Below, piece after piece: positions 1,912 to 7,323 of a DNA stretch of 39,545 nt. The number at the start of each line of letters is the position of its first letter. Position 1 is the stretch's first letter. Position numbers and translations under genes: made by a program. The DNA comes from a virus. Location of the stretch: the UHGV virus genome UHGV-0207529. One strand, written 5' to 3'. A model generated the notes under the pieces. That model worked only from the letters and a program-made list of their open reading frames with translations. It had not been told where the DNA came from and did not search any database.

Positions 1912-2025
1912 ATCACACCTTTGGTATTCAATTTGATATCAAAGTGTATGCAAAAAAATTTTGACTAGATATACTCACTTTGCTATCTTTTGTATTCGAA
2001 AAGAGTTGTTTGTGTGGAGGGTAAC
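1912..2025. promoter_or_regulatory. immI divergent promoter/operator region between mnt and arc
   Basis: Intergenic between divergent RHH repressor genes; contains a perfect 12-bp palindrome tttgatatcaaa and a TTGACT -35-like hexamer. Confidence 0.4.
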
Positions 2026-2178
2026 ATGGAGAAAGAAATAAGTAAGATTTTGGTAAGGATGCCGCAGTCGTTAAAGGATGCTATCGGTAGCAGGGCAAAG
2101 GAAGAGTGCAGGTCGTTTAACTCAGAGGTTATCAAGCGCCTGATAGACAGCCTGAAGAGAGAGGGGGTGATGGTATGA
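2026..2178 (+). CDS. arc: Arc-like ribbon-helix-helix repressor (immI)
   Basis: 50 aa from internal ATG with GGAGGG SD; matches the P22 Arc pattern (MPQ...RSxNSE...EG). Confidence 0.8.
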   Translation: MEKEISKILVRMPQSLKDAIGSRAKEECRSFNSEVIKRLIDSLKREGVMV

Positions 2179-2378
2179 GTAAAGAATGTTGTTTCTGCGG
2201 CATTAGCGAATCAGACGCTGATCAAACATACATTTACTCTAAAGAAACAGGTCGGATGCTGTGTAGTGACTGCGTGTTGGACATCATAAGATACAAGCAT
2301 CTTGGATGTTCTGCCAGCATTAGCAATATAGGTGAAGTATACGAAGGGAAAGATATAACTGATAGAGCAGAAAGTTGA
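2175..2378 (+). CDS. Small Cys-rich (CCxC...CxxC) protein inserted between arc and ant
   Basis: 67-aa ORF overlapping the arc stop (ATGA); putative zinc-binding cysteines. Confidence 0.45.
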   Translation: MSKECCFCGISESDADQTYIYSKETGRMLCSDCVLDIIRYKHLGCSASISNIGEVYEGKDITDRAES

Positions 2379-2441
2379 AGCCCCAACTGCGGGAACAGTC
2401 AGGGCTTCGGTATCGTAAAACCACGCATAGGAATTAACGAC

Positions 2442-3365
2442 ATGAAAAGTATAGCAACAGCAGTATCTACTATCAATGTACCATTCCACGGCGCAGAGCT
2501 TTATGTTGTCAATCACAACGGCGAACCGTATACCCCAATGAAACCTATCGTTGAGGGAATGGGGCTAGACTGGAAATCTCAACATAAGAAGATTTCTCAA
2601 CGCTTCTCGAAGGGTATGGTGGAAATAACCATACCTTCTGCCGGTGGGGTGCAAGCCATGATTTGTATGGCTTTACGAAAATTGGCAGCTTGGTTGAACA
2701 GCATCAGTCCTAACAAAGTCCGCCCTGAAATCCGCGACAAGGTAATCCAGTATCAGGAAGAGTGTGACGATGTGCTATACGAGTACTGGACTAAAGGCCA
2801 TGTAGTTAACCCACGCAAAGCTAAAAAGGCGTTGCCGGGTAAAATCACCACTGAGCAGCAGAAAGCCATTAAACAACTCGTCATGAGTCGCGGTCAGTCT
2901 CTGCCAAAAGAAAAACAGGCTAAGGCGATGATCACCATGTGGTCGTCACTGAAATCTCATTTTGGGTGTTCATACAAAGAAATCAGTGAGGAGCAGTTTG
3001 CCGAAGCACTGTCACTTGCAGCTCGAGTTCCACTTGAAGGCGAGTTTATCGGCAAACAAGAGAAGAAAACCAACGAGCTTTCTGCAAAAGAAGCAAACAG
3101 CCTTGTATGGTTATGGGATTATGCCAACCGCTCACAGGCGTTATTCCGCGAACTGTATCCGGCATTAAAACAAATTCAATCGAACTATTCCGGCAGATGC
3201 TACGACTATGGTCATGAGTTCTCGTATGTTATCGGAATGGCGAGAGACGTTTTAATCAATCACACACGAGATGTTGATATCAATGAGCCAGACGGACCAA
3301 CGAATCTTTCCGCATGGATGAGACTTAAGAATAAAGAATTACCTCCTTCAGTACATAACTACTGA
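2442..3365 (+). CDS. ant: Antirepressor Ant
   Basis: 307 aa, immediately downstream of mnt/arc as in P22 immI; size matches P22 Ant (about 300 aa). Confidence 0.8.
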   Translation: MKSIATAVSTINVPFHGAELYVVNHNGEPYTPMKPIVEGMGLDWKSQHKKISQRFSKGMVEITIPSAGGVQAMICMALRKLAAWLNSISPNKVRPEIRDKVIQYQEECDDVLYEYWTKGHVVNPRKAKKALPGKITTEQQKAIKQLVMSRGQSLPKEKQAKAMITMWSSLKSHFGCSYKEISEEQFAEALSLAARVPLEGEFIGKQEKKTNELSAKEANSLVWLWDYANRSQALFRELYPALKQIQSNYSGRCYDYGHEFSYVIGMARDVLINHTRDVDINEPDGPTNLSAWMRLKNKELPPSVHNY

Positions 3366-3384
3366 CAGATAACCAACGCAACGA

Positions 3385-3407
3385 CCCAGCTTCGGCTGGG
3401 TTTTTTT
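3385..3407 (+). terminator. Rho-independent terminator after ant
   Basis: Hairpin cccagc-ttcg-gctggg followed by TTTTTTT. Confidence 0.65.
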
Positions 3408-3465
3408 ATGCCCAAAATTCACCGTGGCCATGCTGCGGCGATTTCTTGTATCTGGAGCAAATTAA

Positions 3466-5523
3466 ATGACAGACATTACAGCCAATGTTGTGGTAAGCAT
3501 GCCTTCGCAACTCTTCACTATGGCGCGTTCTTTTAAAGCCGTAGCTAATGGCAAAATTTATATCGGTAAAATTGACACTGACCCTGTAAATCCTGAAAAC
3601 CAGATTCAGGTTTATGTGGAAAACGAAGACTGTTCTCACGTTCCTGTTTCGCAACCAATCATCATTAACGCTGCTGGTTACCCTGTATATAACGGACAGA
3701 TTGCCAAATTCGTTACTGTACAGGGCCATTCTATGGCTGTTTATGATGCGTACGGTGTGCAGCAGTTCTATTTTCCGAATGTGCTGAAGTATGACCCGGA
3801 TCAGTTAAGACAAGAGTTAGCAACAGAGGGTAATGAAATACTTGTTGACGACTCCCGTATTGCAGTTAAAAGTGTTCATGTAAATTCAAAACTTAGAACA
3901 CAGCACAATAAAAACGCAGAAATAATCACGCCAAATGATTTTATATCAAATTATGACATGATATCTGCAGCTATTAACTCTGGAGAGAGTGCCGCAGTAT
4001 TTAATTCCAGGTATGCATTCACAATAACAGTTGGGGAATATGGTAATTTTAAATCTATTAGTGATGCTCTAAACTCAGCTGTTGCACTGCGTCCACTATG
4101 GAAAAATGGCATTGATTTTTGCATAATTAAAATTCTTTCCGGTTTTGTGCTCAATGAGCAAATAGAAATTTCAGCAGGATGTGACTTATCATGGATTAAA
4201 ATAATATCAGAAGACTCAGTGGTTTTCTCTGATACCAGTTTGTTTACTAAAACTGTTAGGACGTATTACGAATACAAATATTTATTTTACATTTGCGATG
4301 CAGCAAAAAGTCCTGTATTTGCTATTCAGATTGAAGAAAATAGAGATGATAGCGATGTTTGTGCATTTATTGTAACTCAAAAAGCTGAACTTAATTTCTA
4401 TCCGTATTCAGGTGCTCGAAAGTTCTACGTTGGAATTCATGGTAGCTTTGGTGCAAAAATTAGTGCATATCATACCGGATGTGCTCCTGATGAGGAAAGT
4501 GTTGCTGCATATATGCCAGAAGGGTATTACGTATGTGATTTTTCTTATAGCAGATACTCTTCCCTGCAACTGGTAAATAATGTCAAGGCATCAATGCCTG
4601 TAAGTAAGTTTGAACGGTGCACAGAGAGTACGGTTGCGTCAGTTAATTGTATTTATAATGTTAAAGCAGATTTTCAGGGGTCAAGTGCAAGCTATTGTTA
4701 TATAGGATGGAATGTAAGAGATGGTTCAAATGTTAATATACGCGACCATAAAACTATACATTGCTCATATCGTGGATTAACGTGCATTCATACAGCATAT
4801 GTTGATGCAAGACGACATGACGTTGAAGAAAGTGATGCAGAAACAAGTGGTAAAGTCCTTGAACCAAATATTGAAAAAGGTTTTTATGGATGTGCACTTG
4901 GTGTGCGTATTGATGGTGCGGGTTGTGTTGATGTTGCTGGTAATGATATGCGCAATTGTGGAACAGCCGTTAATGCAGACACTGGTGCTGTTATTTCCGG
5001 AAAGGCTGTAGATATCTCAGGGGTTGAGCTGGGATTTGATTGCCATGCAGGAGCATCTGTTAATTTTCCAAGGCTATGGGGTACAGATATAAAAAAATTA
5101 ATGCACCTCCAAGATGGTGTAAGGTTTAACTCTAATATTTGTCATGTATTTGGTGCAAATCCCACAAAAGATATTAGATGGATTGATGTAGAGAGATCTG
5201 AAGCTTCTTTTATGAATGCAACGCTGGATGCAGATTCAGGATTTATTGCTGACTGTGGTAGTAGGATAACCATTGAAGGAAGTAAAGTTAAAAACCAAAC
5301 AATAAGAAGTTTTTTTGGATCACATGTGGCTATAAATAATACTGTTGCTGACAGAACTTATTCAGATATAGCCGATGTTCCGCAGTTGACTATTAGTGGA
5401 GGATCTTTTATTTCTGCTACAGGATATTCTAATTCTGACTCCAGCCCTCTTAGGTTGAGCACAACACGAAATACACTTGGAGTTGGAGGAGCCATATTTT
5501 CAACCAATGGGGAAGTTTCATGA
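3466..5523 (+). CDS. Tailspike: P22 gp9-type N-terminal head-binding domain with a divergent receptor-binding domain
   Basis: N-terminus [34 protein letters not shown]...VLKYDPDQ matches the P22-family tailspike head-binding domain; the remaining ~570 aa are AT-rich and not P22-like. Confidence 0.9.
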
Positions 5524-5819
5524 TTAAGAGCATTGATGTCACTCCATTTCTTCACTCGCTTTGCGCTTTTGCGGCTCAGGTACTGGTTGGTATTTTTACC
5601 GGAAACTGGGCTTACGGTGCGATAGCCGGTTGTACGTTCTTCATTGCGCGTGAACACACCCAGGCAGAATATCGCTGGATAGAAAAGTTTGGGAAAGGGA
5701 AACGTGTCAACATGCCGTGGTGGGGAGGTTTTGATCCACGCGTGTGGGATGTGGGAAGTTTGTTGGATTTTTCTTTCCCAATTATCGGATGCTTATTGGT
5801 ATGGATTCTTGCATCGTAG
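5520..5819 (+). CDS. Small hydrophobic membrane protein (moron) coupled to the tailspike gene
   Basis: 99-aa ORF overlapping the tailspike stop (ATGA); several hydrophobic segments. Confidence 0.45.
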
Positions 5820-5910: not shown

Positions 5911-7068
5911 TTACTCCACCTTTTCATCAAGCCAGTCCGCCCACCACTGCATCATTTCTCTGCGCTTATCGAGATACTGAGCATGGTTGTAAATACCACG
6001 CACAGATCCGCCGTTGGCATGTGCCAGTTGCACTTCAATAGCGTCAGCAGGCCATTCGTGCTCGTTCATAATCGTGCTGAATTCATGCCTGAATCCGTGA
6101 CCGCTTTCCAGACCCTCATAGCCGATTTGTTTGATCACAAGCAGTACAGCGTTCTCGCAAATTGGCTTCTTCTTATCGTTGCGCCCGGCAAAAACAAATT
6201 CTGATACTGGTTTAGTGATGGAGCTTAGCGTAGTGAGAAGTTCAACCACCTGGTCTGACATCGGGACCACATGAATTTTGCGTCCCTTCATCACACTGGC
6301 GTCGATGGTGATAATCCTGTTTTCAAAATCGACGTTCTTCCATAGCATGGAACGAAGCTCTTTCGTTCTTAGGGCTGTGTAGCGTAAAACTTTGGTCGCA
6401 ATGAGCGATACGATACTTCCTGAAAATGTTGCCAGTGCTTTGTTGAATGCAGGGATCTGGTCTGCTGGAAGAAACGGGAAGTTCTTCTTGCGGTATCCTT
6501 TCATGGCGTCTGCAAGGTCAGGTGCCGGGTTATATTTAGCCCTTCCGGTGACAATAGCGTAACGGAAAACCTCGCCGCATCTTCTGCGGGCTTTGTTGGC
6601 TCGCTCCATTGCACCGCGATCTTCAAATCTGCGGATTACTTCCAGCAGTTGCATCGGCTCAATATCCTGAATCTCAAGACCGCCGATGATAGGTAAAATG
6701 TCGTCATCAAACATTTTTGCAAGTTCAGTTGCATATCCTACTGACCAGACTTGCTTCTTGTGCTCGTACCATTCCTTGTAAATCGCACTAAAGGAATTGT
6801 TGTTAGACGAAGCCTTTTTCGCTTTTACCGGATCGATGCCAACCGAGATGTCTTTCCTCGCAGTCCATGCTTTATCCCTTGCCTCCTGCAAAGTCATAAG
6901 TGGATATTTTCCGACGGTCAGGATTTTCTCCTTACCGTCAATCTTGTAGCGAAGCTGCCATACCTTTTTCCCTGACACAGGGACATAAAGGTACAGGCCA
7001 TTACCATCGAGAAGGCGGTATGGTTTTTCTTTCGGCTTTGCTGCTTCAATCTGCTTAACGGTGAGCAT
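5911..7068 (-). CDS. int: Tyrosine integrase, P4-like
   Basis: N-terminus IEAAKPKEKPYRLLDGNGLYLYV typical of P4-type integrases; C-terminal HGFRH and catalytic Tyr region (VRGIYNHAQYL). The track ORF extends to a GTG at 7104; the ATG at 7068 (MLTVKQ) is preferred. Confidence 0.85.
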   Translation of the reverse strand: MLTVKQIEAAKPKEKPYRLLDGNGLYLYVPVSGKKVWQLRYKIDGKEKILTVGKYPLMTLQEARDKAWTARKDISVGIDPVKAKKASSNNNSFSAIYKEWYEHKKQVWSVGYATELAKMFDDDILPIIGGLEIQDIEPMQLLEVIRRFEDRGAMERANKARRRCGEVFRYAIVTGRAKYNPAPDLADAMKGYRKKNFPFLPADQIPAFNKALATFSGSIVSLIATKVLRYTALRTKELRSMLWKNVDFENRIITIDASVMKGRKIHVVPMSDQVVELLTTLSSITKPVSEFVFAGRNDKKKPICENAVLLVIKQIGYEGLESGHGFRHEFSTIMNEHEWPADAIEVQLAHANGGSVRGIYNHAQYLDKRREMMQWWADWLDEKVE

Positions 7069-7323
7069 GGGTAAAAATCCGGTGGGTAAAATTATTTTAT
7101 CCACTTTTTACCCGTCATGGAGTGCGGCTGTCAACGATCTGACGCGAACCATTACGAACTGTTAATCTACGGAAGGCTTGATATTCAGGGGATTTTGCGG
7201 ACTGGTACGGATGGGAGCGAACTGATAAATGGTGTCCCCTGCAGACATCTACTTGAGGCGGCAGGGGATTGATTGGAATGGTGTTTTTTAGATGTGAAAA
7301 ATATTTTACCCGCTATTTTACCC
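7069..7323. repeat. Integrase arm-type site candidates (TTTTACCC / GGGTAAAA 8-mers)
   Basis: Five copies: GGGTAAAA at about 7069 and 7084, TTTTACCC at about 7106, 7304 and 7316, bracketing the core at 7230-7244. Confidence 0.5.
7230..7244 (-). other. attP core matching the 3' end of tRNA-Arg (argW)
   Basis: Minus-strand CTGCAGGGGACACCA matches the acceptor stem, discriminator and CCA end of E. coli argW as I recall it; flanked by arm-type repeats. Confidence 0.55.

Follow-up and report, generated by a model that had tools for sequence, protein, structure and literature searches.

A mobile receptor module in a P22-like tailspike, predicted to target the related K52 and K116 capsules of Escherichia coli

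Background

Which bacterial surface structure is recognized by a tailspike whose front end belongs to phage P22 and whose remainder does not? The question is raised by a gene in the viral genome UHGV-0207529, a stretch of 39,545 nucleotides that we refer to as the window. An earlier interpretation made from the letters of the DNA alone (the sequence-only reading) had described this gene as a mosaic and had supposed that its receptor-binding part might define a new host serotype range. Here we examine the gene, its relatives and the genomes that carry them, and propose a receptor.

Results and discussion

A P22-type tailspike in a P22-like neighborhood

The window has the make-up of a P22-like mosaic, its relatives being Sf101, HF4s, JEP4, HZ41, HK620-like phages and Sf6; the genome as such is absent from the phage collection compared. 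The gene under study (Table 1) is preceded by a GGAG ribosome-binding site 9 nucleotides 5' of its ATG, and a terminator-like hairpin with a T-run (3385-3410) lies after ant and just before it. The order of Arc/Mnt-like ORF, ant, spike and int is P22-like and recurs in JEP4 and in the prophages described below. The gene thus occupies the Lederbergvirus-type position, after the ejection-protein genes and the immI arc/mnt/ant genes and beside the integrase. Its product matches the phrog_5662 'tail fiber protein' profile from aa 1 to 685 (profile positions 37-729; 1267 bits). We conclude that this is the tailspike gene of a temperate P22-like (Lederbergvirus-type) podophage.

Table 1. Coordinates of the tailspike gene, its domains and the neighboring features in the window
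Feature	Position	Strand	Remarks
P22 immI-like region	1990..3410		upstream of the spike gene
Arc/Mnt-like ORF	1990..2178		62 aa; part of P22 immI-like region
Cys-rich ORF	2175..2378		67 aa; part of P22 immI-like region
Ant antirepressor	2442..3365		phrog_245
Tailspike gene	3466..5523	+	ORF with ATG, 685 aa plus stop; phrog_5662
Head-binding (virion adaptor) domain	3466..3804	+	aa 1-113; PF09008
Linker/neck	3805..3882	+	aa ~114-139; holds main recombination junction
N-terminal cap subdomain	3883..4170	+	aa 140-235; helices 146-152, 162-175 and 198-207 in the model
Right-handed beta-helix body (predicted)	4183..5520	+	aa 240-685; presumed glycan-binding/catalytic part
Predicted membrane protein	5520..5819	+	99 aa; ATG overlaps tailspike stop (ATGA); phrog_1443, function unassigned
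int (integrase)	5911..7104		

The small gene directly 3' of the receptor module has a GC content of 47%, unlike the spike module. It is found in the same place in JEP4, HZ41, HEMP4 and the 118UI prophage, and also 3' of tail-fiber genes in phage 21 and many lambda-like or lambdoid phages. It may be a moron or a superinfection-exclusion gene, an assignment that does not imply membership in the spike.

The assignment of the first ~115 residues to the P22-family head-binding domain, already made in the sequence-only reading, is confirmed. Pfam Head_binding (PF09008) spans aa 1-113 over its entire profile (1-113 of 113, E = 1.2e-65), which places the protein among the P22-type tailspikes, and the solved P22 and Sf6 N-terminal domains are 73-90% identical to this segment. 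A phmmer search of PDB sequences matched the N-terminus alone (Sf6 gp14, aa 1-160; P22 gp9, aa 1-116), and the Pfam scan of the 685-aa protein gave no further credible match beyond Head_binding. Residues 1-113 are thus a canonical head-binding domain, by which the spike is plugged into the tail hub.

An AT-rich module with a predicted beta-helix fold

Nucleotides 361-2058 of the gene have a GC content of 37.1% (GC3 21.8%) versus 46.7% for the whole window, in agreement with the earlier remark that the C-terminal part is markedly AT-rich; the N-terminal 360 nucleotides stand at 42.5% (GC3 40.8%). The GC minimum of the 39.5 kb falls in the C-terminal module, whose value is matched or undercut in just 0.26% of equal-length windows. 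The drop sets in at ~3800-3830. At the same place, nucleotides 354-362 of the gene (window 3819-3827), its DNA-level match to other E. coli genes for P22-type tailspikes, of which there are more than 1,100, comes to an end.

Beyond the neck, searches by sequence and profile met no characterized family. The alignment to the P22 gp9 endorhamnosidase ends at aa 116, and the profile of the window protein's own family has no PDB match past the neck. Neither sequences nor profiles of endosialidase GH58, K5 lyase or the Klebsiella K-lyases matched, and Pfam found no SGNH/GDSL hydrolase domain and no Beta_helix domain (PF13229) in the window protein itself. An NCBIfam search of the C-terminal module returned no match, a profile of the 24-sequence family found no solved relative in the PDB past aa ~180, and a viral fold search of BFVD gave uncharacterized or generic beta-helix proteins alone. 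As judged by these comparisons, the window protein lies outside both the P22 endorhamnosidase family and the known capsule-depolymerase sequence families.

An AlphaFold2 monomer model built on an alignment of 24 relatives reached a mean pLDDT of 85.5, with values exceeding 90 almost throughout aa ~180-685 and low values at aa 121-124 in the neck. It lays out a helical cap (aa ~140-235), followed by a long run of short strands; the cap bears a conserved RTQHxKN..DF motif that is common to Sf6 gp14. The Foldseek neighbors of the model are phage spikes and polysaccharide-active beta-helices, the best being the receptor-binding protein of phage Andhra, and the beta-helix adhesins pertactin, Vag8 and TibA are also among the matches. 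Among the relatives, Pfam gave weak matches to Beta_helix (PF13229) in three, with a best E of 1.9e-4, and to NosD in one. Given that the model, the Foldseek neighbors and the weak Beta_helix matches point to the same fold class, the earlier statement that this region bears no resemblance to the P22 beta-helix stands for the sequence, but not for the fold class. The fold predicted for the receptor module is pectin-lyase-like, a right-handed parallel beta-helix, and on this predicted fold the protein has the kind of receptor domain seen in P22-type tailspikes.

The protein is therefore a P22-type tailspike by adaptor, gene context and fold. P22 gp9, Sf6 gp14 and HK620 gp9 resemble it in the head-binding domain (73-90%), in gene position and in the plan of adaptor, neck and beta-helix. 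The closest functional precedent is the spike of CUS-3, a temperate P22-like prophage of K1 ExPEC, which targets a group-2 capsule and has an N-terminus 95.8% identical to ours over aa 1-118; its endosialidase receptor module, however, is unrelated, and Pfam and PDB searches gave no endosialidase match for the window protein. The top fold match, gp15 of Staphylococcus phage Andhra (PDB 8EGR), binds wall teichoic acid, and gp12 of phi29 (3GQ7) is a more distant likeness. Both differ from the window protein in having another N-terminal anchor and Gram-positive hosts, and at 14-17% identity with no profile-level match the likeness is one of fold.

A mobile cassette with two recombination junctions

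The gene did not prove to be new. NCBI holds an identical protein (P0001, 'bifunctional tail protein [E. coli 174750]'; 100% over 685 aa), the tailspikes of HZ41 (OM022251) and JEP4 (MT740315; gp20, QOC67869) are 99.6% and 97.4% identical in amino acids over the same length, and phrog_5662 covers it from end to end. These three represent the same gene, followed by the same 99-aa ORF and integrase, and the differences between JEP4 and the window protein are confined to aa 1-90. Among prophages, the genes found in the records of seven complete E. coli genomes show 98.6-99.3% DNA identity.

The receptor module is also found behind other virion adaptors. A tail fiber of the 130-kb phage 92CQ (XVC02409) is ~100% identical from aa ~140 onward, the identity beginning within aa 129-140. 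In two epsilon15-type spikes, those of HEMP4 and of the 118UI prophage (WP_000218903), identity is 46% in aa 141-235 and ~98-100% in aa 240-685, so that the same beta-helix body is joined to different adaptors in the 92CQ fiber and the epsilon15-like spikes. The cap, then, is kept at ~100% identity in 92CQ and at just 46% in the epsilon15-type fusions, which places a second recombination junction inside the module, at aa ~232-240 (window 4159..4183; nucleotide 694 at the DNA level). Relatives at 34-69% identity have P22-type, TSP1/gp66-type, tail-collar or T7-fiber N-termini, and many Asp, Glu, His and Arg residues remain invariant in the alignment down to 34% identity, D240, D250, E291, D358, D419, H442 and D494 among the invariant positions. 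The family is rare, with 15 representatives at E<1e-30 among 1.84 billion; two of its protein clusters, P0001 and P0002, have ~190 database members each. Judging from these alignments, the module is a mobile cassette that has passed nearly unchanged among P22-like, epsilon15-like and large phages; the horizontal swapping proposed in the sequence-only reading is thus borne out, with the same module behind P22-, epsilon15-, TSP1/gp66-type, tail-collar and T7-fiber N-termini.

A further GDSL/SGNH domain (alignment columns ~1235-1404) is appended at the C-terminus of two relatives at 45-51% identity, P0013 (863 aa) and P0018 (841 aa), and this esterase domain is a hint that related substrates are O-acylated. 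In 92CQ (PV682554, 59-71 kb) several receptor proteins are encoded side by side, the module among them; its neighbors include a second tail fiber and a 'colanic acid degradation protein', an arrangement that suggests a multi-spike virion.

Specificity could not be taken over from any relative. A near-identical tailspike of known specificity had been named beforehand as the finding that would overturn the sequence-only reading, and none appears in the searchable literature. The same literature holds no receptor or activity data for JEP4, HZ41 or VEc3, and the tailspike/O-serogroup catalog of Pas et al., supplements included, gives no specificity data.

O-antigens of the carrier strains

O-types were read from the PGAP wzx/wzy names in five strains carrying the module: PCP07083 is O7, FORC_082 is O5, MS 198-1 is O11, 118UI is O15, and CB7286 belongs to the O17/O44/O73/O77/O106 group. 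Co-occurrence was scored per genome record with a chimeric megablast query composed of the module and a marker gene. By this measure the O7 wzy marker was positive in 1/16 carrier records, and an O7-specific spike, the candidate suggested by the first carrier, was rejected. The diversity of O-types and the rarity of O7 wzy together make O-antigen specificity unlikely. Colanic acid, ECA and other universal glycans were considered as the O-types varied, and were set aside once the association with capsule loci described below had emerged.

Two of these strains have irregular surface-glycan loci. In FORC_082 (NZ_CP026641, 1,827.5-1,834.7 kb) the colanic-acid gene fcl is truncated and wcaJ is frameshifted, both annotated as defective; since flgG is also frameshifted in this assembly, these defects may be sequencing errors. 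The O15 cluster of 118UI (NZ_CP032515, 2,355.9-2,358.2 kb) has ISAs1 copies between galF and wzx.

Carriers share K52- and K116-type capsule loci

We take O11, O15, O17, O73 and O77 to be O-types of the CC69 clonal group, and the presence of such O-types among the carriers led us to locate their kps loci. Region 2 of 118UI encodes a 525-aa ORF, a 123-aa phosphatase-like ORF, a 248-aa GT2, an 829-aa acyltransferase, kpsT, a 1248-aa TagF-like protein and a 330-aa GalT-like protein. That of PCP07083 encodes a GalT-like ORF, a 1249-aa TagF-like protein and a 262-aa acyltransferase. The shared region-2 proteins of the two strains are 63%, 47% and 71% identical, and the kTYPr catalog gives 63.1%, 48.4% and 68.5% between K52 and K116 (PMC13171606 supplements). 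As the ORF lengths and identities match the tables of PMC13171606, we assign 118UI to K52 and PCP07083 to K116. A degenerate IS3 lies between kpsS and the K52 region 2 of 118UI (3,560.1-3,561.2 kb).

A kps marker was present in 16/16 carrier records and the 118UI-type (K52) region 2 in 10/16. Across 5,426 E. coli genomes, 50 have the module or the K52/K116-type TagF-like gene, and a K52/K116-type locus occurs in 49 (0.9%). The polymerase gene of this type is found in 15/16 carriers versus 34/5,410 non-carriers (Fisher p=3e-31, or 3e-29 after removal of one duplicate genome, in a test that ignores relatedness). Conversely, by these markers the module is present in 10/40 K52 records (~25%) and 5/9 K116 genomes. 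In complete E. coli genomes, then, the module occurs almost only together with a K52/K116 group-2 locus, irrespective of O-antigen. This genomic association is the kind of capsule-type-restricted occurrence seen for capsule-specific depolymerase spikes, and the 'new host serotype range' of the sequence-only reading finds no support in its O-antigen sense, with carriers of O5, O7, O11, O15 and the O17 group associated instead with K52/K116 loci.

Several of the K52 carriers are probably one CC69-like clone. The carriers as a whole are not, because their backbones, integration sites and sources differ: P22-type prophages occupy argW or the bio/ybhB site, those of the epsilon15 type lie beside yfgI, the isolates come from humans, chicken, pig and seawater, and an identical spike (WP_447311267.1) is shared by one K116:O7 strain and one K52:O17-group strain. 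The genomes of EC332 (NZ_AP039429), MS 198-1 (NZ_CP146687) and GPEC1186 (NZ_CM142789) each contain two separate copies of the module, presumably because one cell harbors a pair of prophages of identical specificity.

The sole carrier without a K52/K116 locus is EC332, whose group-2 region 2 (4,236.8-4,247.1 kb) contains glf, a ugd-like nucleotide-sugar dehydrogenase gene, an acyltransferase gene and two GT2 genes. Its spike, WP_366972078.1, lies at the same bio/ybhB site as that of the K52 strain 24A16CRGN010. K-locus replacement is documented in CC69 (PMC13171598), and such a replacement after lysogeny would explain the mismatch; a capsule switch in EC332 is thus possible.

A predicted capsule-targeting spike and its alternatives

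The explanation that we favor for these observations, with somewhat better than even confidence, is that the gene encodes a tailspike directed at the capsule and probably able to depolymerize it, with the related teichoic-acid-like K52 and K116 capsules as its targets. The argument is one of genomic association, and no published phage enzyme for K52 or K116 was found in the searchable literature. The spike would be a homotrimer whose beta-helix binds the K52/K116 capsule and probably cleaves its polymer at a glycosidic or phosphodiester bond, allowing the virion to tunnel its way down to the outer membrane, as CUS-3 does with its K1 endosialidase spikes and phi29 with gp12 on wall teichoic acid. 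The enzymes making the two polymers would be homologous (galactosyltransferase, TagF-like polymerase and acyltransferase), and the presence of TagF-like polymerases and acyltransferases in both loci suggests that the polymers are teichoic-acid-like and O-acylated. With just 47% identity between the polymerases of K52 and K116, the two capsules need not share an epitope.

For K52, we assume a backbone of galactose phosphate with O-acetyl and O-propionyl groups. A title cited in the PMC13171606 supplements describes K52 as a fructose-containing polymer.

Gp12 of phi29 degrades wall teichoic acid. The fold neighbors that use this polymer, the esterase domain appended in some relatives and the many invariant residues agree with a capsule-binding, probably depolymerizing spike, short of proving it. 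A more specific, and distinctly more tentative, version of our proposal is that the cassette may be the first identified phage depolymerase for E. coli K52/K116, cleaving the hexose-phosphate backbone and sharing a beta-helix lineage with Andhra gp15 and phi29 gp12; we would put this at rather less than an even chance.

The alternative that fares best, though we consider it unlikely, is that the spike recognizes another surface target, such as an exopolysaccharide or the LPS core, and that the link to K52/K116 is an indirect one through lineage, ecology or capsule-permissive infection. EC332, with the prophage and another K locus, is what this would lead one to expect, and a Fisher test blind to phylogeny could overstate the association. 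Disfavoring it is the convergence of several O-types, sources, backbones and integration sites on two related K loci that are present in 0.9% of genomes, while the K-locus replacement described for CC69 would account for EC332.

Slightly less probable still is a spike that binds the capsule without depolymerizing it, acting as a pure adhesin or as a modifier of the polymer, for instance through de-O-acylation. The module showed no catalytic motif, its closest structure, Andhra gp15, has no shown activity, and adhesins are among its fold matches, all of which would fit an adhesin. Against this, the Asp, Glu, His and Arg residues kept invariant between distant relatives speak against such a spike, and a polymer modifier would be at odds with a window protein that has no SGNH or other esterase domain. 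To our knowledge, virion-borne beta-helix spikes of podophages are almost always enzymes, which we also count against a pure adhesin.

Finally, the reading from which this work started, a classical O-antigen-specific tailspike defining a new O-serogroup host range, has in its favor that the O-antigen is the target of most P22-like spikes (P22, Sf6, HK620) and that these share the architecture of head-binding domain and beta-helix, but with five O-clusters in five carriers, O7 wzy in one carrier of 16 and an identical spike in O7 and O17-group strains, it is highly improbable.

Conclusions

The gene itself is ordinary, because the exchange of receptor domains between modular tailspikes is textbook knowledge and GenBank already contains the exact gene, unannotated. 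The sole new element is a testable receptor prediction for a capsule-targeting spike, namely the K52 and K116 group-2 capsules. K52 dominates uropathogenic CC69 and was the E. coli K type ranked top in invasive potential (PMC13171598), and K116 is likewise linked to invasiveness (PMC13171606). If the prediction is validated, the depolymerase would serve as a typing reagent and an anti-virulence tool, would offer a route to the K116 structure, and would exemplify enzymatic action on phosphodiester-linked capsules.
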